From Verrucomicrobiota bacterium (GTDB taxonomy: Bacteria > Verrucomicrobiota > Verrucomicrobiia > Limisphaerales > BJHT01): DNA of 64,000 bases. Positions within the stretch are counted from its first letter, which is position 1; every line of letters begins with the position of its first letter. Shown one piece after another: positions 8,296 to 56,800 of this stretch. The stretch spans positions 1,005-65,004 of the forward strand of contig BJHT01000007.1 of NCBI GenBank assembly GCA_014193395.1, read 5' to 3'. The translations under genes were made by a program, and so were the position numbers. The notes beneath the pieces were generated by a model, which was not told the DNA's origin, searched no databases, and worked only from the letters and a program-made list of their open reading frames with translations.

Positions 8296-10890
8296 ATGGC
8301 ATTTTCACAGCTTCACCGGCGCCCGCTCATTTTCTGGAGCGGTTGCCTCCTCGCAATCATCGCGGCTTGGACATCGATGCCGGCCGTTTCAGGAGCAGTG
8401 CTGGACAAGCAAAAGGCGCTGGAAACGCAGACCTTCTGGGACAACCGCGATTGGGATTGGTTCAAGGCGACGATCCCGTTTTTCGAGTGTCCGGACGCGG
8501 AGTTGGTAACGACGTATTATTACCGGTGGGAGCTGGTGACGAAGCATCTCACGTATGGGTCGCCGAACAGCGGATACAGTTTTACGGAGTTCACCGACCG
8601 GCCGTTCTGGAGCGGGGCGTACGGGGCGATCAGTTGTCCGGCGGGGCATCAGCTTTACGAGGTGCGCTGGCTGCGGGACCCGCGGTATGCGCGGGATTAC
8701 GCGCGGTATTGGTTCCGAACGCCGGGTGCGCAGCCGCGCAACTACGGCTGCTGGCTCACGGACGGCGTGTGGGCGGCGCACGAGGTGCATCCGGACGCGG
8801 CGTTCGTGAAGGACTTGCTGCCGGACTTGAAGCGCAACTACGAGGCGTGGGAGAAGCGGCAATTCGTGCCGGAGGTCGGGCTGTTCTGGCAGAACGGGCA
8901 CGACGACGGAATGGAATTCAACATCAACAGCCGGCAAACGAAGGACATTCTGCGCGGCGCGAACGGCTACCGTCCGGGATTCAACGCCTACATGTATGCG
9001 GATGCGCTCGCGATCGCGCGGGTGGCGCGGCTGGCGGGCGACGACGCGACGGCACGGACGTATGAGGTGAAGGCGGCGGGGCTGAAGGAGAAAGTCCAGA
9101 AGCTGTTGTGGGATCCGAAGCGCGAGTTCTTTTTCCCGATGTCGATGCGGGACGAGACGGACAAGGAGGGGAACGTGGTGAAGAAACATACGCTCACGTA
9201 TCAATCGGGGAGGTTCGCAGGGAGTCCGCACGGGCGCGAATTGCACGCCTATATCCCCTGGCAGTTTAATCTGCCGGACGCGGGCTTTGAGTCGGCGTGG
9301 AAGTTCTTGATGGACCGCGATTTTTTCTTCGCCGACTTCGGGCCGACGACGGTGGAGCGCCATGATCCCCTGTTTTTGTTGAAGAACTCGTGCTGCTGGT
9401 GGAGCGGGCAGTCGTGGCCGTATGCGACGGCGCAGACGCTGAAGGCGCTGGCGAATCTGCTGCACAACTACCGGCAGAACGTGGTGACGCGGGCGGATTA
9501 CGTGAAGCAGTTGGGCATCTTCGCGCGGTCGCATCGGAAGCAGGGCAAGCCGTATCTGGCCGAGGCGTTGCATCCGGACACGGGGTTGTTCGAGGGGCAC
9601 GACGGCTACAATCACAGCGAGCATTATTTCCACAGCAGCTTCAACGATCTGGTGATCACGGGGCTGGTGGGCTTGAAGACGCGGGCGGATGACGTGGTGG
9701 AGATTGATCCGCTGGCACCGGCGGAGTGGGCGTTTTTCGCGCTGGACGACGTGCCGTATCGCGGCCGGCGGCTGAGCATTTTGTGGGACAAGGACGGGAC
9801 GCGGTATCAGCACGGGGCGGGCTTGCGCGTGCTGGCGGACGGGAAGGAAATCGCGTCGCTCCCGACGCTGGGGAAGATTTCCGCGACGCTCCCGACGGCG
9901 GCTGCCGCAGCGGTGGGAACGGCGAGCGCTGCGGGCGCGAGCGGGAAGACATTGCTGAACTACGCGGTGAACAACGACGGGGATTATTATCCGCGGTTCA
10001 CCGCATCGCATACCGATCCGAAGACGCCGCTGAACAAGGTCAACGACGGTCATGCGTGGTACACGGTGCATCCGCCGAATCGCTGGACGACGGCAGGCTC
10101 GACGAATGCAACGGACTGGCTGGCGGTGGATTTCGGCGCGGCGCGGCGCGTGAGCGAGGTGCGGCTGTATTGGCTCGACGACGGCACGAACGTGGTGGCG
10201 CCGAAGTCGTACACGTTGGAGCAGTGGGAAGGAGATGGCTGGAAGAAGATTCCAGGACAGCAGCGGAATCCCGAGGTCGCGGCGGGGCACCGGGCGAACG
10301 TCGTGCGCTTAGCGGCACTCGACACGCGGAAGCTGCGGGTCGTCTTCGCGCATGCGGCCAGCGGGCGGACGGGGTTGAGCGAGTTCGAGGCGTGGGGCGA
10401 GGGATCGCTGCCGTATGAGCCGGCACCGCCGCCGCCGGGGAATCTGGCGTTGAACATGAAGGGCGAGGGATTTCCCAAGGCGACGGCGTCGTTCAGCGAT
10501 CGTTACGGCGGAGTGGCGAAGTCGGCGATTGACGGGAAGGTCAATTACCGCCCGACACCGGTGAACCGCTGGACGAGCTACGGCTCGACCAACGCGACGG
10601 ACTGGCTGGAGGTGGATTTCGGCGCGGCGCGCGAGGTTGGGCGGGTGGAGTTATACATTTACGATGATCGCGGCGGAGTGCAGCCGCCGGCGAGTTACAC
10701 GGTGCAGGGCTGGTTTGATGGCGATTGGCGCGAGCTGGCGGCGCAGGTGAAGACACCCGCCAATCCCACGGGGAACATGATTAACACGGTCCGCTTCTCG
10801 CGCGTGACCACAACGAAGCTGCGGGTGGTGTTCACACACCGCGAGAAATCGCGGAGCGGTGTGACGGAACTGGAAGTCTGGAAAGAGTGA
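8296..10890 (+). CDS. Secreted (alpha/alpha)6-type glycoside hydrolase (GH63/MGH1-like) with two C-terminal F5/8 type C (discoidin/CBM32-like) domains
   Basis: 864-aa ORF with an N-terminal signal-like segment (LIFWSGCLLAIIAAWTSMPAVSG). Two repeats of NATDWL(A/E)VDFGAAR.VxxVxLY..DD...V..P.SYT carry the discoidin-domain signature. The GH family assignment is tentative. Confidence 0.7.
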   Translation: MAFSQLHRRPLIFWSGCLLAIIAAWTSMPAVSGAVLDKQKALETQTFWDNRDWDWFKATIPFFECPDAELVTTYYYRWELVTKHLTYGSPNSGYSFTEFTDRPFWSGAYGAISCPAGHQLYEVRWLRDPRYARDYARYWFRTPGAQPRNYGCWLTDGVWAAHEVHPDAAFVKDLLPDLKRNYEAWEKRQFVPEVGLFWQNGHDDGMEFNINSRQTKDILRGANGYRPGFNAYMYADALAIARVARLAGDDATARTYEVKAAGLKEKVQKLLWDPKREFFFPMSMRDETDKEGNVVKKHTLTYQSGRFAGSPHGRELHAYIPWQFNLPDAGFESAWKFLMDRDFFFADFGPTTVERHDPLFLLKNSCCWWSGQSWPYATAQTLKALANLLHNYRQNVVTRADYVKQLGIFARSHRKQGKPYLAEALHPDTGLFEGHDGYNHSEHYFHSSFNDLVITGLVGLKTRADDVVEIDPLAPAEWAFFALDDVPYRGRRLSILWDKDGTRYQHGAGLRVLADGKEIASLPTLGKISATLPTAAAAAVGTASAAGASGKTLLNYAVNNDGDYYPRFTASHTDPKTPLNKVNDGHAWYTVHPPNRWTTAGSTNATDWLAVDFGAARRVSEVRLYWLDDGTNVVAPKSYTLEQWEGDGWKKIPGQQRNPEVAAGHRANVVRLAALDTRKLRVVFAHAASGRTGLSEFEAWGEGSLPYEPAPPPPGNLALNMKGEGFPKATASFSDRYGGVAKSAIDGKVNYRPTPVNRWTSYGSTNATDWLEVDFGAAREVGRVELYIYDDRGGVQPPASYTVQGWFDGDWRELAAQVKTPANPTGNMINTVRFSRVTTTKLRVVFTHREKSRSGVTELEVWKE

Positions 10891-18164: not shown

Positions 18165-18246
18165 CCGGCCGCGACTTTGTGAGCGACGGCAGGACCACAG
18201 ACGACGCCCGGCGCACTCGAGCCGCCGCCGAACCGGCGCGAGCTGT

Positions 18247-18433
18247 GGAGTGCGGGGACTTGTCGCCGCTTTCCCAAGGCGACTTGTCGCCGTCGAATGT
18301 GGGGGAGTGTCATTTTGTAACGGGGGCGTTCACCGCTCGCGCCAGCGGTGGCGTGCGCTCCTGTTCGAACGCGCACGGAACGGAGACGGCGACAAGTCGC
18401 CCGCGCAAAAGCGGTGACAAGTCACCGCACTCC
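18247..18433. repeat. Nested-palindrome repeat family B (~186 bp), copy 1
   Basis: The outer arms are GGAGTGCGGGGACTTGTCGCCGCTTT / AAAGCGGTGACAAGTCACCGCACTCC. The inner arms are GGCGACTTGTCGCCGTC / GACGGCGACAAGTCGCC. The core is GCTCGCGCCAGCGGTGGCGTGCGC. Confidence 0.9.
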
Positions 18434-18453
18434 AAAGCCAGAGGAGCCTTCCT

Positions 18454-45591: not shown

Positions 45592-45651
45592 GCGAAAAAA
45601 AGGTGATGCCCCCGAATCAGGCCGAGCGGCAGCGAATGGCGGGCGGCCTTT

Positions 45652-45837
45652 GGAGTGCGGTGACTTGTCACCGCTTTCCCGAGGCGACTTGTCGCCGTCA
45701 AACTGCGGGACGCGTTGGTGGGGAGAGGGGCGCTCACGGCTCGCGCCAGCGCCAGCGCGCCCGCCGGTTCGGATGCGCGCCGAACTGCGACGGCGACAAG
45801 TCGCCTGCGCAAAAGCGGTGACAAGTCACCGCACTCC
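45652..45837. repeat. Repeat family B, copy 2
   Basis: Same architecture and arms as 18247..18433, located between alr and tsaB. Confidence 0.9.
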
Positions 45838-45961
45838 AAACCGCGGCGGGGCACGGCGGTGGACAGGCCGCCAAAACACAGGATCCTGGCGGCGAGACGC
45901 CGCCAGAGCTCGCAGGCGGGGACGCCTGCGGTACCGGGGAGCGGTCGGGACGCGCGCGTAG

Positions 45962-46682: not shown

Positions 46683-46711
46683 GAAAGACGCGGCCGAAGT
46701 GTGGCGGATTT

Positions 46712-46897
46712 GGAGTGCGGTGACTTGTCACCGCTTTACCGAGGCGACTTGTCGCCGTCGGGTTGCGGGAGGCGTGGGTGAGCAATGGGGCGTTCCCGGC
46801 TCGCGCCAGCGGTGGCGTGCGCGCGGGTTCGGACGCGCGCCGAACTTCGACGGCGACAAGTCGCCTGCGCGAAAGCGGTGACAAGTCACCGCACTCC
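46712..46897. repeat. Repeat family B, copy 3
   Basis: Same architecture, located between tsaB and tsaE and abutting family C copy 2. Confidence 0.9.
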
Positions 46898-46922
46898 AAA
46901 CCGCCGCGGCGCGCAGCGCGAT

Positions 46923-47069
46923 GGGGAGCGCACGCGGCCCGCGTGCCGGTTTGGGCGGCCCGCCCAAACCGTCGTTCCCCGGTCTGCCTTCCCTCCGGTG
47001 GGGAAAAGTTAGTGGGACGAGGTTTTCGGCGGGCCGCCGAAAACGGCACGCCAGCGGCGTGCGCTCCCC
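46923..47069. repeat. Repeat family C, copy 2
   Basis: Near-identical to 2463..2609. Confidence 0.9.
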
Positions 47070-47110
47070 GGGGCTTCGGGCTGCGCCCGGGGCGGCTGCG
47101 GCGCATCGCT

Positions 47111-47560
47111 TCAGAGATCCTCATACGTGATGCGGCGCTCGGTTTCGCTGAGCGTTTCGAGGCGGACATGGCGGAGACGCAGGCCCGTCGCAGGCGCACC
47201 GGCGTTGCCGGCGAGGGCGGGCAGCCAGCGCTCGATCCATTCCACCACGGCGACGCCGGCGGGCGCGTAAAGGTATTCGTCCAGCCCCGCCCCGGCGATC
47301 TGCGCGGGCGTGTCGAGGCGGTAGAGGTCGAGATGGAAGAGCGGCAGGCGTCCGCCGCGATAGTGATTCACGAGCGCGAAGGTCGGCGAATGGACGCGTC
47401 CGGCGAAGCCGAGTCCGCGTGCGAGGCCCTTCACGAGCTGCGTCTTGCCGGCGCCGAGATCGCCTTGCAGGCCGAGCACCCAGCCGCCCTGCGCCGCGCG
47501 TCCCCACACCTCGCCAAGAGCCTCGGTTTCGGCAGGGCTATGCGAAATGAACGTATCCAT
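47111..47560 (-). CDS. tsaE: tRNA t6A37 biosynthesis ATPase TsaE (YjeE)
   Basis: 149 aa with the P-loop LQGDLGAGKTQLVKG, SPTFALVN and HLDLYRL. Confidence 0.9.
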   Translation of the reverse strand: MDTFISHSPAETEALGEVWGRAAQGGWVLGLQGDLGAGKTQLVKGLARGLGFAGRVHSPTFALVNHYRGGRLPLFHLDLYRLDTPAQIAGAGLDEYLYAPAGVAVVEWIERWLPALAGNAGAPATGLRLRHVRLETLSETERRITYEDL

Positions 47561-48518
47561 GCGCTTGGAGTTCGTGAACGCCGTGCTCGGTTTTGATCTT
47601 CAGGCCGGAGCCGGCGGTGATGCGCCCGATGCAGGTCAGCGGCACGTCGGGGAATTGCGCGCGCCACGCGTCGAGCAGCGGCACGGCGTCGCGGCTGGCG
47701 ACGGTGAGGAGCAGTTCAAAATCTTCGCCGTCGGTCAGCGCGGCGAGCAGGCGGGATTTGCGCGGGCCGGGGGGCAGTGGCAGTGCGCTCGAGGGCTGGC
47801 CTTCCGCAGCGGCGCTGAGGTCGCGGGTGCGTTCCTTGGCGGCGCGGCTGATGGGAATGGATTTGCCGAGCAACACCGCGCCGACGCCGCTGGCATTCAG
47901 GATATGGCGCAGATCGCCCGCGAGGCCGTCGCTGACATCCATCATCGCGTGAATCGGAAAATGCGCCGCTAGCCAGCGGGCCTCGGCGAGGCGCGGCTCG
48001 AAGTCGAGATGGCGTCCCGCGAGCGAGCCGCCGAGCTGGCCGGTGACGAAGATCGCGTCGCCGACTTTCGCACCGGAGCGAAGCGTGGCTTTTCCGCGCG
48101 GCGCCCAGCCGACGAGCGCGATCGACAGCAGCATCCGCTCGGGATTGGTCGTGGTCTCACCGCCGCTGATGGCGACATCGTGGCGGCGGGCGAGCGCGCT
48201 CAGGCCGCGGTAAATGCCCTCGAGGACTTCGACTTGGAAATCGCGCGGCAAGGCGATGGTGACGAGCGCGCACGTCGGCGTGCCGGCCATTGCGGCGATG
48301 TCGCTTAGGCAGCGAGCGAGGGCTTTGTGGCCGATTTTTTCCGGCGGCGTGTCGGCGGTGAAGTGGATGCCCTCGACGACGGCGTCAGTTTTGAACAGGA
48401 GCACGCGGTCTTTCATTCCGAGATCCAGCACGGCGCAATCGTCGCCGGGGCCGACGAGGACGGAGTCGTTCGTCGGGAGTGCGCGGGTGAGATGGGCGAT
48501 GAGTTCGAACTCGTTCAT
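47538..48518 (-). CDS. thiL: Thiamine-monophosphate kinase
   Basis: Part of track ORF 47538..49427 from MNEFELIAHL. It has the AIR-synthase-like pattern (GDDCAVL, KTDAVVEGIHF, LSDIAAMAG, GGETT). It overlaps tsaE by 23 nt. Confidence 0.88.
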   Translation of the reverse strand: MNEFELIAHLTRALPTNDSVLVGPGDDCAVLDLGMKDRVLLFKTDAVVEGIHFTADTPPEKIGHKALARCLSDIAAMAGTPTCALVTIALPRDFQVEVLEGIYRGLSALARRHDVAISGGETTTNPERMLLSIALVGWAPRGKATLRSGAKVGDAIFVTGQLGGSLAGRHLDFEPRLAEARWLAAHFPIHAMMDVSDGLAGDLRHILNASGVGAVLLGKSIPISRAAKERTRDLSAAAEGQPSSALPLPPGPRKSRLLAALTDGEDFELLLTVASRDAVPLLDAWRAQFPDVPLTCIGRITAGSGLKIKTEHGVHELQAHGYVHFA

Positions 48519-49237
48519 GACGGCCAGAAGATGGGCAGGCGGATGCGCTGCTCGAGAATGAGCCAGAGAAAGTTGGTCAGGTTGAACGTGGCGTGGGTGA
48601 GGATGGGCGTGAGCAGATTGCCGGTGCGTTCGTAGAGCCAGGTGAGCAACAGCGCGAGCAGGACGAGCGGGAGGAAGGTCATGGTGTTCGCGTGACTCAG
48701 CGCGAAGAGAATGGCGGTGAGCCACAGGGCGGTCTGCGGGAAGCCGAGCCGCTTGATCGCCGGATAGAGGATGCCGCGGAACAGGATTTCCTCGACCACC
48801 GGCGCGCACACGATGGCGATGAGGCCGAACACGGCACGCTCGGAACTCGAGACGGAGGTTTGCAGCGCCTGCACGGTGGCCTGCTGGACCGGCTCGGTTT
48901 TGAAGCTGGTCATCACCTGTGCGGACACGCCGGCGAGCATCCAGGAAAGCGGGAGAATGCCCGCGGTCGCGAGCAGCGCCGGGACGACGACGCGGCGGGG
49001 ACTCCAATCGCGCCAGCCAAAGGCCTCGTGCCAGGTCAGGCCGTGTTCGCGCACAAAGACGCCGGTGATGATCAGCACGCCGAGATGGAAGGTGAGCGTG
49101 TTGACGACCAGCGTCGGCAGGCGCGCGTGGGGATCGGGCAGCAGCCGGAGCGCCAGCGAGCCGATCATCATGAAGGCAACAACGCCCAGCAGGAAGCGCA
49201 TCAGGGCTTCGAGTTTCCAGGGCTTTTCCGACAACAT
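48515..49237 (-). CDS. CPBP-family intramembrane glutamic endopeptidase (CAAX protease-like)
   Basis: Multi-TM protein with EEILFRG, FALSH and HATFN motifs. ATGA overlap with thiL. Confidence 0.82.
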   Translation of the reverse strand: MLSEKPWKLEALMRFLLGVVAFMMIGSLALRLLPDPHARLPTLVVNTLTFHLGVLIITGVFVREHGLTWHEAFGWRDWSPRRVVVPALLATAGILPLSWMLAGVSAQVMTSFKTEPVQQATVQALQTSVSSSERAVFGLIAIVCAPVVEEILFRGILYPAIKRLGFPQTALWLTAILFALSHANTMTFLPLVLLALLLTWLYERTGNLLTPILTHATFNLTNFLWLILEQRIRLPIFWPS

Positions 49238-49533: not shown

Positions 49534-49848
49534 TGGGTTGGCGGGAGGTTTTTGAGGCGATCCCGCCACCGGTGTCACACGCGTTTCGTGGCGGGGAAAA
49601 CTGTGGTCGCTGACGGAAGGAAGCCGGTGCCGATGGTGCTCCTCAGCATCGAGGGATCGACTGCTTGCCGCACCCGCCGGGCGTCTCTCTCGCTCCGACA
49701 ACTGGGCGGAAGCGCAGCGGAAACGGGCCGGGGGTGGGCTCAGCTTGTTCCCATCGAGCAGGTGACGACGAGCCGTCGCCACCCCGATTCCGCCATTCCC
49801 CGCGCGCACCTTCTCACGGATCGCGGATCACGGATCATCCGTCACCCC

Positions 49849-51234
49849 TCACACATCCGTCTGTATCTCGATCATCAATGTGCCGATCTCCAGCTTGTTC
49901 CCTCCGCGCAGGGTGTGCGTGGATTTCGTGAGCTTGTTTTCCATTTCCACCTTGCCGTCGCGGAAGGTGACGATGGCGGTCACGGGCGGAAAGCCCTTCT
50001 CTTTTGGCAAATACAGGTGCGCTTCGGGCGAGCTGCCGAGGATCACCGGCTCCGCGCCTAGCGAGATGACCGTGCGTTCGTTCGGATCCCAATGCACTAC
50101 GAGCGCCGCCTCGCGCGCGAGCTTCTCGACGAGCGCGACCATCAAGCCGATGGCTCCGCCGAGGATGAGCGCGCCGAGCAATCGTCCGCCGATCTCGCCG
50201 GCGCCTTGGATCGCCACGAGAAACGCCACCGCGCCGAGCAGTCCGCCGATCATTCCGCCGAGGCTGGCCCGGCCGCGCGGCAGGTTGGGAATGAAACCGC
50301 CGAGGCCCGCGCCGAGCAGCGCGCCCAGCAGCATCCAGCCGAAGACCTGGCCGAGTTTCACAAGCCACAGCGCGTCGGGAAATTTCTCCGCGAGCGTCGG
50401 TGCGACGAGCGCGAACAGGTATTGGCTGGCCGAGCCGGCGAGGAGTCCCGCGAGCACGCCGCCGCCCGCGAGCTTGAGCGCTTCCTTGCGATTCCACGGC
50501 GGACGGCGCAGGAGCAGGTTTTGTCCGGCCACAATGAGCAGCGCGAGGAACGTGGCCAGCAGCGCGGTCCACAGACCGATGGCGAGCGTGATTTTCAGCG
50601 GGACTTTGGCGTAGATCGCGTTGGTTTTCCGCTCGGGCGTGGCGGAAGGCGACGGGACCTCGAAGGTGTGAACCGTCTCCGCCGGCTCGCCGGGGATGGC
50701 GGTGCCCTTGAATTCCTGCACGCGGCCGTTCGCCTTCAACCCGACGGTGAAGGGCGTCGGTCCCACTTTTTCGTGGCGCTCGTAATGATGCACCTGGATG
50801 ACGTAGCGGCCGGGCGGCGCGCCGCCCGCGGGCCAGTAGATGTTCTCGACGGGCTTGTCGGAGTATGGCTCGCGGGCGTTCATGTCCACGTCCAGTTCGC
50901 CACCGGATTTGACCCGCTTCTGGTTGAAATAAATGTGCTCCTTGAGCGGGGTGAGGCAGTGCAGGTCGATGTCGTTGCGATTGTCCCACATCAGCGAAAT
51001 CTGCACGTCGCCGGACTTGGCGGATTCGCGTTCGAGGCGCTTGGTCAGTTCGTTGTTGAAGACCAACACGGGCGCGGCCCCGCCACCCCCAGCGCGGGTT
51101 TCGGCCGACTTCGACGACGGTTTGACCAAAAACAGCAGCGGCTCGCCCAACGCCCAGCCGAGGCCGCAACCGAGCGCGCCGAGCAAGGCGAAGAGAACGG
51201 GCTTCGGGAGCAGATGAACGAGTTTGGTGCTCAT
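49849..51234 (-). CDS. Polytopic membrane protein: TM1, periplasmic DUF2135(YfaP)-like beta-sandwich, 5 Gly-rich TM helices, cytoplasmic FHA-like C-terminal domain (tentative)
   Basis: 461 aa. The ectodomain motif string is ISLMWDNRNDIDLHCLTP..GGELDVDMN..PVENIYW..GRYVIQVHHY. The hydrophobic Gly-rich segments span roughly residues 215-385. The C-terminal ~75 aa (VISLGAEPVILGSS...GNKLEIGTLMIEI) have an FHA-like beta pattern but lack canonical pThr-binding residues. Confidence 0.6.
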   Translation of the reverse strand: MSTKLVHLLPKPVLFALLGALGCGLGWALGEPLLFLVKPSSKSAETRAGGGGAAPVLVFNNELTKRLERESAKSGDVQISLMWDNRNDIDLHCLTPLKEHIYFNQKRVKSGGELDVDMNAREPYSDKPVENIYWPAGGAPPGRYVIQVHHYERHEKVGPTPFTVGLKANGRVQEFKGTAIPGEPAETVHTFEVPSPSATPERKTNAIYAKVPLKITLAIGLWTALLATFLALLIVAGQNLLLRRPPWNRKEALKLAGGGVLAGLLAGSASQYLFALVAPTLAEKFPDALWLVKLGQVFGWMLLGALLGAGLGGFIPNLPRGRASLGGMIGGLLGAVAFLVAIQGAGEIGGRLLGALILGGAIGLMVALVEKLAREAALVVHWDPNERTVISLGAEPVILGSSPEAHLYLPKEKGFPPVTAIVTFRDGKVEMENKLTKSTHTLRGGNKLEIGTLMIEIQTDV

Positions 51235-51261
51235 GGTGCGTTGCGGTGATTAGTCGAGGGC

Positions 51262-51473
51262 AAGTTCAAAGAATAAAGCTCAAAGCTCAAGGGAAGAACC
51301 AAGGAACAAGCGGTTCCAAGGGGACGCGGCCGACGTGTTTGAAAACGGACTGTGCTCCGGGGTGCGGCAGAAACCGGCGGGCAGGTTGATTGCAGAACCG
51401 CCGTCCTCACCGCGCCAGCCGTGGTGCTTGGCGCTTGGTGTTTCCATTGAGCTTTGGGCTTTGGGCTTTGAGC
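51262..51473. repeat. Repeat family D, full palindromic copy in the divergent promoter region of the membrane-protein/vWA locus
   Basis: AAGTTCAAAGAATAAAGCTCAAAGCTCAAGGGAAGAACCAAGGAAC ... GGTGCTTGGCGCTTGGTGTTTCCATTGAGCTTTGGGCTTTGGGCTTTGAGC. Confidence 0.85.
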
Positions 51474-51603
51474 TGCATCCCAACCTCCGCGGCACGCACG
51501 CCGGCAATCCCCCCATCCGCAAAATTTTCTTTGCTCCACCGGAGGCTTCGACAACTCTCCGCGCCGACAGCACAACCACCAACCACTCCAAAAAGGATTC
51601 GCC

Positions 51604-52248
51604 ATGTCAGTGAGAAGATTGCCGGTTTACATTTTGGCCGATTGCTCCGGGTCCATGTCGGGCAACCCCATCGAGTCCGTGAAATCGGGCATCCGCGCCC
51701 TGCACAGCGAGTTGATGGGCGACCCCTCCGCCGTCGAGTGCGCCTACCTTTCGGTCATCACCTTCGACGCCAACGCGCAGCAGCTCGTGCCGCTCACCGA
51801 GCTGTCGCTGTTCGCGCCGCCGGACTTGAAGGCCGCGGGCACGACGGCGTTTGGCGCGGCGCTCAAGCTCCTCATGGAGTGCATCGAGCGCGAAGTGCAG
51901 AAGACCACCGCCGAGCAAAAGGGCGACTGGAAGCCGCTCGTCTTCATCTTCACTGACGGCTCGCCGACCGACCGCTGGGACACCTTCGCCGATGAACTCA
52001 AGGCCAAGCGCCCCGGCAACATCATCGCCGTCGCGTGCGGTGACGCGGCCGATCCCGAGGTGCTCAAGCGCGTCACCGGCACCGTGCTCATCATGAAGGA
52101 AATGTCGCCCGACGCCTTCAAGCAGTTCTTCAAATGGGTCAGCGCCTCGATCAAGCAGACCAGCGCGAAGATCGGTGCCGCGGCCGCCGCACCCACCGAG
52201 GGCATCGCGCTTCCGCCGCCGCCGCCGCAGATCGTCATCCATCCGTGA
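51604..52248 (+). CDS. TerY-type von Willebrand factor A (vWA) domain protein
   Basis: 214 aa. MIDAS residues are present (ILADCSGSMSG ... AGTTAFG ... FTDGSPTD). Size and sequence style match TerY-like vWA proteins. Confidence 0.8.
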   Translation: MSVRRLPVYILADCSGSMSGNPIESVKSGIRALHSELMGDPSAVECAYLSVITFDANAQQLVPLTELSLFAPPDLKAAGTTAFGAALKLLMECIEREVQKTTAEQKGDWKPLVFIFTDGSPTDRWDTFADELKAKRPGNIIAVACGDAADPEVLKRVTGTVLIMKEMSPDAFKQFFKWVSASIKQTSAKIGAAAAAPTEGIALPPPPPQIVIHP

Positions 52249-52340: not shown

Positions 52341-54008
52341 ATGTTCGACAAATTCTTCAATCGTCCGCCCGGCGGCAAAGCGATCAAAAAAGCCGCCGCC
52401 AACCCCGCTGCAGACGCGCCGAAAACCGGAGCCGCCCCGGCGGCGGCGACGCCGCCAGCTCCCGACGTCGCGAAGCTTCCGACGGCTCCGGCACCCGCTC
52501 CCAGCCCGCCCGCCGCTGTTTCCTCCGCGCCAGCCAAGGTTGAGGAAAAGCCCGATTCCAAAGGGCCGAACGAGGCCATCCCCGACATCAAGACGTTGAA
52601 GATCGACCGGAGTCTGCCGCGGGAAAAACCAAAGATGCCGGACGGTTCCGCAGCGCCCGAGGCTGCTCGCGAGGCCGCGAAATCACCCGCCGATTCCGCG
52701 CTGAAAACGCCTTCGCCCAACACACTGACGCCGCTCAACCGGCCCGCAGAATCCGCCACGCCCGCCGCCGCGCCATCGCGCCCGGCCTCGGTACCGCAGG
52801 CGTCCCCGCCTGCGAGTTCGGGCGGCGTCTCGCCGCCAGAACCCATTTCCGCCGCGCGTCCGCCCTCTCCGCTCGCGTCCGAGAAAACCGATTCCACATC
52901 AGCCCAAGACCCCGTAAAACCCAGCCCGCTGCCCGCTCCCACCGCGCCTGTCGCCTTGCTCACTGCCCCGAAAAAAGCAGACGCACCGGCATCCACGCTG
53001 CCGCCGGTGCCCGCCCCCAAACCCACCGAGCCGCCCGCGCCCAAGGCCGCGCAATTTCAAAATCTCCCCGCCACCGACGCTTGGTGCCCGCCCGCCATCG
53101 CCGAGCATTATCCCGAATTGCGTGCGCACATTTACGAGGACAACGCCGCCACCGAACGCGTGCTGCCCGGCGGCTGGCGCATCGTCGGTGCGACCAAGCG
53201 CGGACGTCAGCACGCGCACAAGGCCACGCATCGCGAGGACGCGCTGGCGTTCAACGTCGGTGCGCAGTTCACTATCCTCTGCGTGTCCGACGGCGCGGGG
53301 AGCTGCCCGCTCAGCCGCCTCGGTTCGCACGTCGCGTCACACACCGTCGCTGCGCGACTGATGGAGCAATTGCCGAAGCTGGAGAAGGCCGTCACGGACG
53401 ACGCGGACAAATTGAAAACCGAATTGAGCGCGCAGCTCACCGCCGCGCTCGTGGCCGCGTGCCAGGCGCTGGTGGACATGGCGGCGAAAACCAAGACCAG
53501 CGCGAAAGATTACCGCTGCACGCTGCTCACGCTGCTGCATTGGCGCGGCGAGAAACACGAACTGCTGATCGCCAATCAGATCGGCGACGGCGCGATCCTC
53601 GTGCTGAACCAGGACAAATCCACGCGCCGCATCGGCGAGGCGGACTCGGGGCAATTCTCCGGCGAGGTGAGCTGCTTCGTCCCCGACGACAATGCGCGCG
53701 ACAAGGCGAAGAAGATTGATTTCATCGCGCCCGCCGACGCGGTCGAGTGCGTGCTGCTCTGCACCGACGGCCTCGAGGACCCGTTCTTTCCCATCGCGAA
53801 AAAGGCCGGGGATTTGTTCCGCCAGCTCTACGCCGGCGTGAGCGAGCCGCTGAAGGATTTCAAGGCGCAGCCGCCGCAGCCGCCGATCCTGCCGCAGGAA
53901 AGCGCGGCGGGCGCGCTCGGGCAGTGGCTCGAGTTCGAGAAGCGCGGCGAGAACGACGACCGCACCGTGCTCCTGTTGCACCGCCGCCCGCCGACGGTGA
54001 CGTTCTGA
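52341..54008 (+). CDS. PP2C-family Ser/Thr phosphatase with a ~245-aa Pro/Ala-rich N-terminal low-complexity region
   Basis: 555 aa. The C-terminal ~300 aa carry PP2C-like metal-binding motifs (HREDA, CVSDGAGS, LCTDGLEDP). The N-terminus is PAxP-rich. Confidence 0.72.
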   Translation: MFDKFFNRPPGGKAIKKAAANPAADAPKTGAAPAAATPPAPDVAKLPTAPAPAPSPPAAVSSAPAKVEEKPDSKGPNEAIPDIKTLKIDRSLPREKPKMPDGSAAPEAAREAAKSPADSALKTPSPNTLTPLNRPAESATPAAAPSRPASVPQASPPASSGGVSPPEPISAARPPSPLASEKTDSTSAQDPVKPSPLPAPTAPVALLTAPKKADAPASTLPPVPAPKPTEPPAPKAAQFQNLPATDAWCPPAIAEHYPELRAHIYEDNAATERVLPGGWRIVGATKRGRQHAHKATHREDALAFNVGAQFTILCVSDGAGSCPLSRLGSHVASHTVAARLMEQLPKLEKAVTDDADKLKTELSAQLTAALVAACQALVDMAAKTKTSAKDYRCTLLTLLHWRGEKHELLIANQIGDGAILVLNQDKSTRRIGEADSGQFSGEVSCFVPDDNARDKAKKIDFIAPADAVECVLLCTDGLEDPFFPIAKKAGDLFRQLYAGVSEPLKDFKAQPPQPPILPQESAAGALGQWLEFEKRGENDDRTVLLLHRRPPTVTF

Positions 54009-54036: not shown

Positions 54037-54118
54037 GTAGCCGCCGACGTGAGGAGGCGGATTCGGGCGTGTGCCAGCGCTCGTGCCAGCCAATCCGCCT
54101 CCTCACGTCGGCGGCTAC
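54037..54118. repeat. Family A-like mini-palindrome between the PP2C and kinase genes
   Basis: GTAGCCGCCGACGTGAGGAGGCGGATT ... AATCCGCCTCCTCACGTCGGCGGCTAC (27-nt arms, 28-nt spacer). Confidence 0.8.
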
Positions 54119-54130
54119 AAGGATTTGCCC

Positions 54131-55579
54131 ATGAGCCACGGCCCGTTCATCAAGGCGCGGATGCACGGCGGGGGCGAGATCGTCTTCCACAGCGAGCCGC
54201 TCGCGTCGGGCGGCGAGAAGGTCGTGTTCAAATCGCAGGAGGGAAAACACGTCGTCGGCTTTTTCTTCGGCCAGCTCGATGACCGCCCCGAGCGTCTGCG
54301 CCGGCTCGAGAAAATCATCGGCTCCTACAATCCCACCACCGGCGGCGCGCAGGCCGAGCACTGGCTGAAACATTTCTGCTGGCCCGTCGGCGTCGTGGAC
54401 GGCACGCAAAACAAGCTGCCCGCCGAATGGCTGCGCCGGAACAATCTCCACGCGCCCGTGCTCGGCGTGGTCGCGCCGGTCTATCGGGCGAACTTTTTCT
54501 TCCGCGACCGCACTGGCGAGCTGCGCGAGAAAAAAGGCAAGTGGTTCACCGGCGTGAAGGCGCGCAAGCTCCTGCCCGATTCCGAGAAGGGCGATTTTCT
54601 CCGCTATTTGCAGGTCTGTTCCGTGATGGCCAGCGCGGTGCGGCGGCTGCATTACGCGGGCCTCGCGCACGCCGACCTCTCGCACAACAACGTGCTCATC
54701 GACCCCAAGGGCGGCGACGCGTGCGTGATCGACATCGACTCGCTCGTCGTGCCCGGCCTCGCGCCGCCGACCGTGCTGGGCACGCCCGGCTACATCGCGC
54801 CCGAAGTCGTCGCGGGTAAAAAACTGCCGTCCATCGAGACCGACCAACACGCGCTCGCCGTGCTCCTCTACGAAACGCTGCTCCAGCGCCATCCCCTCCA
54901 CGGTCCAAAAATCCATACGACGCGCTCCGCCGAAGAAGACGATCTGTTGATGATGGGCGCGCGCGCCCTCTACATCGAGCATCCCACGGACTTTTCGAAT
55001 CATCCCAAGACGCCGCCCGCCATTTCCGTGCGCCGGCTCGGGCCGTATCTGGAAAAACTTTTTCTCAAAACGTTCGCGGAGGGCCTGCACCAGCCCGCAC
55101 GCCGCGCCACGGCGACCGAGTGGGAAAAGGCTTTGTCGAAAACCTTCGACCTCCTGCACCCGTCGCCTGCGGGCGGCGAATGGTTCGTGCTCGACCGCAA
55201 CCTGCCGATGATCTGCCCGCACAGCGGCCAGCGCCTCACGCAGCCGGTGCCGTATGTGGATTTTTATCGCGAGACGAGCACCGGGGCTTACTCCGATGAA
55301 AACCACTCGCTGACCCTGTGGAACGGCCTGCATCTCTACAAGTGGCACACCCTCGCCAACGTCTCGCCCCACGACGCCGAGCGCACGTCACAGGGCTACT
55401 TCACCTTCCACAACCGGCGCTGGTATCTCGTGAACCAGAGCGGTGCCGACATGTGGCTGCCCGACGCCCAGCGCTTCGTCCCGCACGGCGCGGCCGAGCC
55501 GATCACGCAGGGATTGAAGGTGCTGTTCTCCCTCGAAGAAGGCCGCCGGCTGGGCATCTTCAACTTCATGAAACCGTAG
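54131..55579 (+). CDS. Ser/Thr protein kinase-like protein with a C-terminal ~135-aa uncharacterised beta-rich domain
   Basis: Track ORF 54071..55579. Start moved to MSHGPF because the first 20 codons lie in a palindromic repeat. It has the catalytic loop HADLSHNNVLID, VIDIDS (DFG equivalent) and GTPGYIAPE. Confidence 0.75.
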   Translation: MSHGPFIKARMHGGGEIVFHSEPLASGGEKVVFKSQEGKHVVGFFFGQLDDRPERLRRLEKIIGSYNPTTGGAQAEHWLKHFCWPVGVVDGTQNKLPAEWLRRNNLHAPVLGVVAPVYRANFFFRDRTGELREKKGKWFTGVKARKLLPDSEKGDFLRYLQVCSVMASAVRRLHYAGLAHADLSHNNVLIDPKGGDACVIDIDSLVVPGLAPPTVLGTPGYIAPEVVAGKKLPSIETDQHALAVLLYETLLQRHPLHGPKIHTTRSAEEDDLLMMGARALYIEHPTDFSNHPKTPPAISVRRLGPYLEKLFLKTFAEGLHQPARRATATEWEKALSKTFDLLHPSPAGGEWFVLDRNLPMICPHSGQRLTQPVPYVDFYRETSTGAYSDENHSLTLWNGLHLYKWHTLANVSPHDAERTSQGYFTFHNRRWYLVNQSGADMWLPDAQRFVPHGAAEPITQGLKVLFSLEEGRRLGIFNFMKP

Positions 55580-55864
55580 TCCGCCGCAGCCCACCCGAAG
55601 GCGCGGCCGGAGCGATCGCACCGATTCCAGGCGAGGTCCACGGGCGGCGGCTGAGGTTGCACACTCCAACGTGTTCCGGGGCAGCGCCGGGCTGGCTCCC
55701 GCGCCGTTTCATTCTCGGAGGGCAGTGTCGGCCAAGCACCCGCGATGGATAGAAAGGGTTGCCGTTGCCAACCGAATGGAGCGCCGGGGGCCGACAAATT
55801 AAGGCGTGTGTTTGACAAGCAATGGCGAGCGGGGCGGGCGGGCTGTGGTTACAAAAGTACGCAA

Positions 55865-56800
55865 ATGCCAGCAGCAACTATCAACCACCACCCCCTGCCG
55901 GAGTCCGGCTCGGTCCCGGCCGCCGCGAGGGGCGGGGCCGCGCTCGCGGGCGCCGCCACGGTGGCGGGACCGTTGAGCGTTCCGTTGGATTTCGTCGGCA
56001 ACGGTCTGGTCAGTCTCTACATGTCGTCGCGCGCGGGCGGCCTGGCGATTGATGTGAATCTGAATCCCGACGGGCGGTGCAATTTCAACTGCGCCTATTG
56101 TGCCGTGGATCGCTCGCAGTTGTCGCGCGAGCCGGTGGTGGACGTGGACCGGCTCGCTCGGGAATTGCGGGAGTTGCTCGCCTTGGTGCATTCCGACCGG
56201 ATTCAGCAGCAGGCCGGTTTTCAAAATCTGCCGCCGGAGTTGCGCCGGCTGCGGATGGTGGCGTTGTCGGGGGATGGCGAGCCGACGTTGTCGCCGGTGT
56301 TCTGCGAGGCGGTCGAGACGGTGGTGCATGTGCGCGCGCTCGGGGGCTGGCCGTTCTTCAAACTGGTGCTCGTGACCAACGCCTCGGCGCTGGACCAGCC
56401 GCGCGTCCAGCAGGGCCTCCAGCATTTCACGCGGCAGGATGAAATCTGGGCCAAGCTCGACGCCGGCACGCAGGCGTTTTTCGAACGCTTCAATCGCGCG
56501 TCCGACACGCTCGAACATGTGCTGCGCAACATCCTGCTCGTGGCGAAGGAGCGGCCGGTGGTCATCCAATCGCTCTTCGCCCGGATGCGCGGGCAGAACC
56601 CGCCCGCCTCCGAGGTGCTGGAATACATCGCCCGCCTCCAGGAGTTGCAGGCGGCGGGCGCGCAGATTTCATCCGTCCAGATCTATTCGGCGAACCAGCC
56701 GACGCCGAATGCGGAATGCACGCATCTCTCGCTGCCCGCGCTCTCCGGTATCGCGCGACAGGTCCGCACGGCGACGGGTCTGCGGGTGACGGTGCATTGA
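55865..56800 (+). CDS. Radical SAM protein (subfamily not recognised)
   Basis: Track ORF 55745..56800. It has the CxxxCxxC cluster motif CNFNCAYC and the SAM-binding-like LSGDGEPTL. The start at 55865 (MPAATINHH) is uncertain. Confidence 0.7.
   Translation: MPAATINHHPLPESGSVPAAARGGAALAGAATVAGPLSVPLDFVGNGLVSLYMSSRAGGLAIDVNLNPDGRCNFNCAYCAVDRSQLSREPVVDVDRLARELRELLALVHSDRIQQQAGFQNLPPELRRLRMVALSGDGEPTLSPVFCEAVETVVHVRALGGWPFFKLVLVTNASALDQPRVQQGLQHFTRQDEIWAKLDAGTQAFFERFNRASDTLEHVLRNILLVAKERPVVIQSLFARMRGQNPPASEVLEYIARLQELQAAGAQISSVQIYSANQPTPNAECTHLSLPALSGIARQVRTATGLRVTVH

Follow-up and report, generated by a model that had tools for sequence, protein, structure and literature searches.

The stretch analysed here, hereafter the window, comprises 64,000 nucleotides of a Verrucomicrobiota bacterium (contig BJHT01000007.1, positions 1,005 to 65,004). 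On its minus strand, at positions 49849-51234, it carries a gene for a membrane protein of 461 amino acids, referred to as the target. According to the list of open reading frames (ORFs) and the translation, the gene starts with ATG and ends with a stop codon at 49849-51, and the plus strand of the same interval is riddled with stop codons. An earlier interpretation made from the letters alone (the sequence-only reading) had proposed a gene at this position without stating its strand; the gene is confirmed and lies on the minus strand. Genes for a TerY-type vWA protein, a PP2C phosphatase and a Ser/Thr kinase run divergently from the target, and are separated from it by an intergenic spacer of 369 bp (51235-51603 by ORF coordinates) that is presumed to be a shared regulatory region. 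The target itself is composed of a conserved N-terminal helix, a beta-sandwich homologous to YfaP, five hydrophobic helices, four of which resemble glycine zippers, and a domain with an FHA fold that lacks the phosphothreonine pocket. It is not a chance ORF, because 252 homologues were found at E<=1e-3 and an alignment of 71 sequences shows invariant residues in all three parts of the protein. The closest homologue is 94% identical over the full length. An AlphaFold2 model built on the 71-sequence alignment reached a predicted local distance difference test score (pLDDT) of 88.9 and a predicted template modelling score of 0.77. On another contig (L008, a 131-kb contig of a verrucomicrobial metagenome-assembled genome mislabelled Akkermansia), positions 8744-10153 are 92% identical at the DNA level to 49842-51251 of the window. 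This similarity covers the target gene only, with unrelated flanks on both sides, which suggests that the single gene was recently transferred or recombined between the two genomes.

The middle domain was located at residues ~59-195 (50650-51060, minus strand) by hhalign, Pfam, PHROG and the structural model, in which a helix at residues 61-69 lies ahead of strands spanning residues 77-193. The sequence-only reading had associated this region with YfaP/DUF2135 on account of a motif series, all members of which were found about where they had been placed: ISLMWDNRNDIDLH at residues 79-92, GGELDVDMN at 111-119, PVENIYW at 128-134 and GRYVIQVHHY at 142-151. The association is borne out. A profile of target residues 56-200 aligned to residues 141-225 of Escherichia coli K-12 YfaP over 84 columns (hhalign Prob 97.4%, E 1.1e-11), and both proteins have the motifs LxWxxxNxDLDLH, GxLDxD and GxYxVxxxYY. 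The Pfam model for DUF2135 (PF09906), which is just 48 positions long, matched the target at residues 139-166 with 17.3 bits (E 0.0053), below its gathering cut-off of 22 bits, and matched 37 of 71 relatives at E<=0.1 (best E 8.7e-6). Due to the alignment to YfaP and the matches among the relatives, the domain is identified by sequence comparison as a homologue of YfaP_C. Cyanobacterial homologues of the target are already named 'YfaP family protein' by NCBI. Residues W83, D88, D90, D115, D117, N119 and E130 are invariant in the 71-sequence alignment, and the acidic and amide cluster D88, D90, D115, D117, N119 and E130 may therefore form a metal site. Among PDB sequences the sandwich profile yielded only a marginal match to 3afg, the Ca2+-binding beta-jelly-roll C-domain of a subtilisin (E 0.36), which is a hint of a pre-peptidase-C-terminal-like sandwich and not a finding. 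Weak Foldseek matches of the sandwich included the TerD-family structure 2qz7 (E 0.12, root-mean-square deviation 11.9) and TTHA1873, the latter from the model of a Cylindrospermopsis homologue (P0093) that is 44% identical to the target. A relationship to TerD (PF02342) is not claimed, as neither of two hhalign comparisons was significant (Prob 0.2% with one TerD; Prob 15%, E 0.0018 with a profile of four TerD sequences).

On its own, the YfaP-like domain is far more widespread than the target architecture: 549 matches were confirmed among species-representative genomes, and Planctomycetota, Bacteroidota and Poseidoniales archaea are among the carriers. It is also matched by PHROG 1735 (E 1.2e-24) and was found in 32 IMG/VR loci, where most carriers are proteins of ~680 amino acids with no transmembrane (TM) helix and no other recognisable domain. 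Thus the domain is not always extracytoplasmic, since it occurs in TerY proteins and phage proteins that lack TM helices, and the compartment of the sandwich is not fixed by its YfaP-like identity. Some of the phage contigs carrying the domain (L093-L124, for example L093 4744-6843; PHROG 1735, 23228) are longer than 250 kb. The phage proteins gave no Pfam, vWA, PP2C or kinase signal.

The C-terminal domain at residues 376-459 (49858-50109, minus strand) was assigned to the FHA fold by Foldseek, the structural model and the family alignment. In the model, residues 371-460 have a pLDDT of 90-94. The ten top Foldseek matches of the target in the PDB are all FHA domains, with TM-scores of 0.47-0.73 on the target, a probability of 1.00 and E-values of 2.5e-3 to 5e-2. 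They comprise GarA, Rv0020c, proteins of type III secretion systems (T3SS; 4d9v, YscD), CT664, Ki67, Mb1858 and an Arabidopsis protein. The fold was found again in the AlphaFold2 model of the Cylindrospermopsis homologue, for which Foldseek returned YscD, PscD, GarA, OdhI, Rv1747 and ArnA. The FHA-like tail postulated from the letters is thus supported by structure comparison in two proteins. At the sequence level, neither Pfam FHA (PF00498) nor Yop-YscD_cpl matched the target or any of the 71 relatives, a profile of the tail found no FHA protein among PDB sequences, and hhalign comparisons of the tail with two true FHA proteins gave Prob 6% and 26%. The sequence-only reading had also pointed out that the canonical G-R, S-x-x-H and N-G residues are missing, and the family alignment agrees: G-R and S-x-x-H are replaced by G400-S401 (an invariant glycine with no arginine) and P416-V-T-A, and an N-G is absent. 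These positional equivalences derive from the sequence pattern and hhalign, not from structural superposition. The tail segments quoted earlier were located at residues 388-409 (VISLGAEPVILGSSPEAHLYLP) and 445-457 (GNKLEIGTLMIEI). G393 and G400 are invariant in the 71-sequence alignment, and the G-x-K-L-x-I-G motif is retained as GNKLEIG in the target. The tail thus combines an FHA fold with the loss of the phosphothreonine pocket.

Six hydrophobic segments were identified by Kyte-Doolittle hydropathy at residues 12-37, 215-241, 254-276, 294-315, 325-342 and 352-369, in agreement with the six TM helices that had been counted by eye. The first (TM1; 51124-51201, minus strand) is glycine-rich and highly conserved: F15, G19 and G22 are invariant, and C23, G26, G30 and E31 are present in at least 90% of the sequences. 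It corresponds to a helix at residues 11-35 in the AlphaFold2 model (pLDDT 97-98). The block TM2-TM6 (residues 215-369; 50128-50592, minus strand) is supported by hydropathy, conservation and coevolution, and it contains GxxxG-type runs. The glycine-rich segments quoted earlier were located in it at residues 257-267 (GGGVLAGLLAG), 303-313 (LGALLGAGLGG), 325-335 (LGGMIGGLLGA) and 353-363 (LGALILGGAIG). Five glycine-rich TM helices had been proposed to follow the sandwich; hydropathy supports five helices, but only TM3-TM6 are glycine-rich and TM2 is not. Within the block Q238, N239, W300, N317, L318, R351 and G354 are invariant, as are E370 and R374 just past TM6. No match to the block was obtained in Pfam, NCBIfam or PDB sequences, and the whole target protein had no match in NCBIfam and found nothing meaningful among PDB sequences.

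A topology with both termini inside the cell and the sandwich outside is favoured, because loop charges, coevolution, arginine-rich tails of relatives, fusions and single-pass relatives all point in this direction. Over the 71 sequences, the stretches placed inside carry a net charge of +2.4 (residues preceding TM1), +2.6 (loop 2-3) and +2.0 (loop 4-5), and the outside loops 3-4 and 5-6 carry -0.1 and +0.2. Coevolution was assessed by mean-field direct-coupling analysis (DCA) with 255 sequences (172 effective); its statistics are weak. It recovered the TM2-3 hairpin (five pairs, i+j = 482-494), the TM4-5 hairpin, a parallel arrangement of TM3 and TM5, and antiparallel pairs between TM5 and TM6 (331-362 and 326-365). 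Residues 363-379 couple with loops 2-3 and 4-5 as well as with those ends of TM2 and TM3 that are placed inside (234-363, 243-375, 242-377, 248-366 and 318-367). Of the ten top pairs that are informative on TM6, eight agree in depth to within 10 Å in a model with six TM helices, against a background of 37%, while none of the ten does so if residues 320-372 form a straight helix. A second DCA run, which included TM1 and is not independent of the first, agrees; with 60 effective sequences it had too few to read the orientation of TM1. Relatives from Armatimonadota that lack the FHA-like domain carry arginine-rich tails directly after TM6. Among the relatives, P0120 carries a Zn ribbon at its C-terminus and P0088 a GYF domain at its N-terminus, and single-pass relatives occur in the layouts Zn ribbon-TM-YfaP-like or type-II anchor-linker-YfaP-like. 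The sequence-only reading had placed the sandwich in the periplasm and the tail in the cytoplasm. This placement is favoured by loop charge, coevolution, the tails of FHA-less relatives and the fusions, and the C-terminus is probably inside the cell. It is opposed by the predicted structure, which draws TM5 and TM6 as one (kinked) helix, and the last hairpin is not proven.

The architecture had been described as unusual, but its membrane and tail part is not rare. A search with TM2-6 and the tail (residues 205-461) against 1.84 billion cluster representatives gave 928 matches at E<=1e-3, 607 at <=1e-10 and 130 at <=1e-30, so that at 50% identity the family has no fewer than 928 clusters. The module, for which neither Pfam nor NCBIfam has a model, is nearly always C-terminal and is combined with different heads. 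Among ten varied members sampled, vWA was the commonest head found (four members), one had a prenyltransferase/SQHop-cyclase-like head and five gave no Pfam match. Planctomycete members harbor repeats between the sandwich and TM2 that appear Ig-like by eye. Cyanobacterial members have an extra C-terminal beta domain of ~95 amino acids, and the same domain ends a headed protein (P0093 458-550), a headless paralogue (L001 9626-10855) and a protein that joins FHA to PrsW (L026 8349-9980). Its sequence follows the pattern '...NPKDPSILGLQNCS...GRSIKLA.GTKI.FG...', and it may be a second FHA-like module. In the paralogues termed headless, TM1 is joined directly to TM2-6 and the tail with no sandwich between them. 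They adjoin the headed gene in Cylindrospermopsis, Microcystis and the loci L091/L092, with coordinates L001 9626-10855 (minus strand), L026 12509-13720 and L091 8445-9269. Their pairing with headed genes suggests that the two form hetero-oligomers.

Helices of this kind could also build an effector. According to this explanation, the glycine-zipper helices form an oligomeric pore or ion channel, which is opened via the FHA-like domain once the triad encoded next to it responds to a trigger such as phage or chemical stress, and which depolarises the cell in a manner resembling abortive infection. This would be consistent with the GxxxG-rich helices and the conserved polar or charged residues at the membrane boundary (Q238, N239, D/E347 in 67 of 71 sequences, R351, E370 and R374), with the headed/headless pairs, if they are hetero-oligomers, and with the apparent movement of the target gene alone between genomes. 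Moreover, anti-phage systems that consist of a TerY-P-like module alone have been reported, and genes for glycine-zipper proteins are found next to those for TerY-like vWA proteins (PMC11090510). Yet most orthologues are located among housekeeping genes and not in defence islands, and the outside heads, which are large and vary between members (vWA, YfaP-like, Ig-like by eye, prenyltransferase-like), resemble inputs for ligand binding more than parts of a toxin. PADLOC gave no match to the target, and the Pfam glycine-zipper families (e.g. PF13488, Gly-zipper_Omp) matched only 1 of 71 members, at E 0.036. A pore effector is thus considered unlikely.

The genes divergent from the target were analysed for their relation to the TerY-P triad. 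As described, all three proteins of this triad are soluble, and its kinase bears a Zn ribbon or an OB fold (PMC11090510). All three are real genes by Pfam: the TerY-type vWA protein (51604-52248, plus strand; 214 amino acids; VWA 2.2e-11) has the metal ion-dependent adhesion site DCSGS and neither a signal peptide nor a TM helix, the PP2C phosphatase (52341-54008, plus strand; 555 amino acids) matches PP2C_2 at residues 287-495 (3.4e-31), and the TerY-P type Ser/Thr kinase (54071-55579, plus strand; 502 amino acids) matches Pkinase (3.6e-13). They are orthologous to the triad of the TerC-TerD-TerY cluster of Lamprocystis (L061), to which the vWA protein and the phosphatase are 52% and 32% identical and the kinase, over its full length, 37%. 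Judged by these identities, the triad of the window is a genuine TerY-P triad. Its kinase lacks the cysteines of the Zn ribbon at residues ~370-390, where ...CPHSG... stands against C..C...CPFC in the ter-cluster kinase. Ahead of PP2C_2, the phosphatase has a long N-terminal low-complexity region of ~260 amino acids (within residues 1-270; 52341-53150) that is rich in proline, alanine and serine and might serve as a flexible tether or as a substrate for a kinase. No sigma-70 consensus was found in the spacer between target and vWA gene, and scans for promoters, terminators and Rfam families around the target were uninformative.

Linkage between target homologues and the triad recurs in other lineages. 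In a relative with 80% identity (L009) the divergent arrangement is the same as in the window. In Cylindrospermopsis kinase, VWA, PP2C and homologue form one operon in this order. The Microcystis locus reads kinase-VWA-PP2C-DUF1036-(FHA+PrsW)-homologue-x-headless paralogue, with the triad upstream on the same strand. Lamprocystis has the order TerC/DUF475-TerD-TerY-TerY-TerY+TerY_C-PP2C-kinase-target homologue, and L091/L092 have kinase-VWA-PAS-PP2C-kinase-homologue-headless paralogue-PrsW. Thus linkage within the same operon is found in cyanobacteria, in a gammaproteobacterium (within a ter cluster) and in an unassigned lineage. At one planctomycete locus a vWA protein, a kinase, a CHAT protein and an FHA protein are encoded nearby, and several planctomycete loci show no triad linkage within 10 kb. 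Furthermore, the outer domain of the target and the vWA domain of TerY are nested in both directions: TerY-type vWA proteins without TM helices in triad operons have a YfaP-like domain inserted in the vWA domain (L038, L048 and L058), and two further proteins have a vWA domain inserted in the YfaP-like domain (P0054 and P0121). Because such neighbourhoods are conserved in at least four other lineages, it is plausible that the tail faces the neighbouring kinase and phosphatase, as the sequence-only reading had supposed. The cyanobacterial triad clusters (L026 692-14853; L001 3091-4068) also encode several paralogous membrane proteins with a common N-terminal domain of ~100 amino acids (pattern 'MNDLPRQKLKEII..G..L.D.PQRCEGLL.D.CG'), one of which has DUF1036 as well.

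Based on the domain identities, the topology, the recurring triad linkage and the nesting of YfaP-like and TerY vWA domains, we interpret the target as a polytopic inner-membrane sensor or a docking/scaffold subunit of the adjacent TerY-P switch, and assign this interpretation a probability of about 45%. The sandwich would face the periplasm and bind either an envelope ligand or a metal, for example Ca2+. The glycine-zipper bundle would oligomerise, and in other lineages probably pairs with the headless paralogue. By analogy to YscD and PrgH of the T3SS, the FHA-like domain would serve in the cytoplasm as a phospho-independent protein-protein module that tethers or regulates soluble TerY, the kinase and PP2C at the membrane. 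In this way, events outside the cell could be converted into Ser/Thr phosphorylation inside it.

Several observations weigh against this interpretation. The FHA-like domain lacks every phosphothreonine-binding residue, and classical kinase-FHA logic is therefore inapplicable. AlphaFold2 draws residues 320-372 (TM5-TM6) of the target as one helix, and its model of the Cylindrospermopsis homologue breaks this helix at one residue only, a glycine equivalent to G346; if the single helix were true, the tail would be located outside the cell. The presence of YfaP-like domains in TM-less TerY insertions and in phage proteins means that the identity of the sandwich alone does not place it outside the cell. 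PADLOC models miss the vWA protein and the PP2C of the window, and its kinase matches only other systems (PD-T4-6, mad6, MkoA). Finally, ~17 other verrucomicrobial orthologue loci, including L008, harbor no vWA, PP2C or kinase gene within 10 kb, and the adjacency in the window could thus be recent or incidental.

These ~17 loci raise the alternative that the target is an envelope protein acting independently of the triad, either as a periplasmic ligand- or metal-binding anchor or as a scaffold whose cytoplasmic FHA-like domain contacts another partner; its position beside the triad in the window would then be incidental. They have no conserved neighbour beyond local synteny, L008 shares nothing but the gene itself with the window, and in E. 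coli YfaP adjoins yfaS, a pseudogene of the alpha-2-macroglobulin family, rather than kinases. Downstream genes of ~440 and ~370 amino acids at the verrucomicrobial orthologue loci gave no Pfam match. The linkage to the triad within one operon in cyanobacteria, the gammaproteobacterium and the unassigned lineage is at odds with this alternative, the nesting of YfaP-like and TerY vWA domains in both directions would be difficult to account for if the two had no functional connection, and genomes with solo orthologues may hold a triad elsewhere. We regard an independent role as rather improbable.

Intramembrane metalloproteases adjoin target homologues in three lineages. In the window, a gene for an Rce1/CPBP-type protease (48515-49237, minus strand; Pfam Rce1-like 1.3e-22), a possible partner only, is located 611 bp downstream of the target on the same strand; elsewhere PrsW or FHA+PrsW proteins are found (L026 8349-9980; L091 9273-10319). 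This arrangement would be expected if the target were a substrate or regulator of intramembrane proteolysis, in which a CPBP/PrsW-type protease cleaves it upon an envelope signal and frees the tail or the head, as in the case of the anti-sigma factor RsiW and PrsW. Such a process could coexist with the proposed sensor function. In Microcystis the FHA+PrsW gene and the homologue overlap by 4 nt and are thereby translationally coupled, in L091/L092 the second gene downstream of the homologue encodes PrsW, and the extra C-terminal domain is common to the cyanobacterial homologue, the headless paralogue and the FHA-PrsW protein. As general background, CPBP and PrsW proteases are placed in one superfamily. 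Against proteolysis, there are three cases only, no protease was found beside the Cylindrospermopsis, Lamprocystis or most verrucomicrobial loci, and the gap of 611 bp in the window speaks against tight coupling. This is the least probable of the explanations considered.

For the preferred sensor or scaffold function, parts of the design can be compared with known systems. E. coli YfaP has a sandwich homologous to that of the target, but it is a soluble protein of 258 amino acids with a signal-peptide-like start (by eye), has neither TM bundle nor FHA-like domain, and is encoded beside yfaQ and the pseudogene yfaS. The inner-ring proteins YscD/PscD/PrgH/MxiG of the T3SS (PF16697) resemble the target in combining a cytoplasmic FHA fold, an anchor and a domain across the membrane, and their FHA-fold domains also lack the phosphothreonine pocket. 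Inner-ring structures were among the top Foldseek matches (4a0e, 4d9v, 6uid, 4a4y, 4g2s). However, these proteins have a single TM helix and an N-terminal FHA-like domain and are part of a secretion machine, whereas the FHA-like domain of the target follows six TM helices, no secretion genes are located nearby and PF16697 gave no sequence match. The threonine-phosphorylation pathway of the type VI secretion system (T6SS) consists of the kinase PpkA with a periplasmic vWA domain, the PP2C PppA, and Fha1; PpkA is itself the membrane-spanning protein, and Fha1 acts as a canonical reader of phosphothreonine. To carry a signal across the inner membrane, this pathway employs the four kinds of domain that also occur in the window (kinase, PP2C, vWA and FHA). 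In contrast to PpkA and Fha1, the window kinase is soluble and the FHA-like domain is degenerate and placed on a separate polytopic protein, and no T6SS genes were seen. The TerD/TerC complex of ter systems offers a parallel in concept, a membrane protein combined with an acidic, possibly Ca2+-binding beta-sandwich; the motif order of the TerD sandwich resembles that of the target, which is a lead only, and TerC shows no similarity to it. With regard to the TerY-P triad itself, the three neighbours in the window are orthologous to it and homologues of the target are encoded in such operons, but a membrane protein of this type is not listed as a component in PMC11090510. The window kinase also departs from the described triad in lacking the Zn-ribbon cysteines.

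The single parts of the target, YfaP_C, the FHA fold and glycine-rich TM helices, are thus known, and their logic resembles YscD-type scaffolds and the PpkA/PppA/Fha1 pathway. No description of the TM2-6 module with a degenerate FHA domain, of its combination with YfaP-like or vWA heads or of the recurrence in TerY-P operons was found in the databases and literature covered, which did not extend to the 2012 paper that defined the triad, and no useful statement on YfaP or DUF2135 was found in that literature. TerY-P triads are widespread. They have been linked to tellurite resistance and phage defence, and their role in signalling is presented only as a hypothesis (PMC11090510). With one domain predicted on each side of the membrane, homologues in triad operons of several phyla and its outer domain fused into TerY, the target is a concrete candidate for the missing membrane link of these triads. 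In addition, a large family of at least 928 clusters (50% identity) that no existing Pfam or NCBIfam model describes emerges from the analysis. The target adds a bacterial example of an FHA fold whose phosphothreonine pocket is lost, borne by a polytopic membrane protein that has no secretion genes around it. The orphan YfaP/DUF2135 domain also receives its first functional context. A broader generalisation is speculative and more doubtful than the function proposed for the target: the TM2-6 glycine-zipper bundle and the phosphothreonine-blind FHA-like domain could be the chassis of an unrecognised, widespread class of bacterial transmembrane receptors with swappable outside heads (YfaP-like, vWA, Ig-like repeats, prenyltransferase-like), coupled to soluble TerY-P switches, assembled as headed/headless hetero-oligomers and tuned by PrsW/CPBP proteases. 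Ter/TerY-P systems for stress and phage defence would thereby gain the membrane input or output that they have so far lacked.

Further features of the window were noted. A radical-SAM gene (55745-56800) immediately follows the kinase gene in the same orientation, and its product weakly matches prokaryotic viperin models (PADLOC pVip, 1.2e-6). Palindromic, GC-rich repeats of 50-190 bp that resemble repetitive extragenic palindromic elements occur in intergenic regions at 2463-2612, 18246-18436, 45642-45858 and 46703-47120, with a copy also on the unrelated contig L008 (841-994). These repeats yield spurious ORFs with recurring peptides such as 'ECGDLSPL...KAVTSHRTP'.

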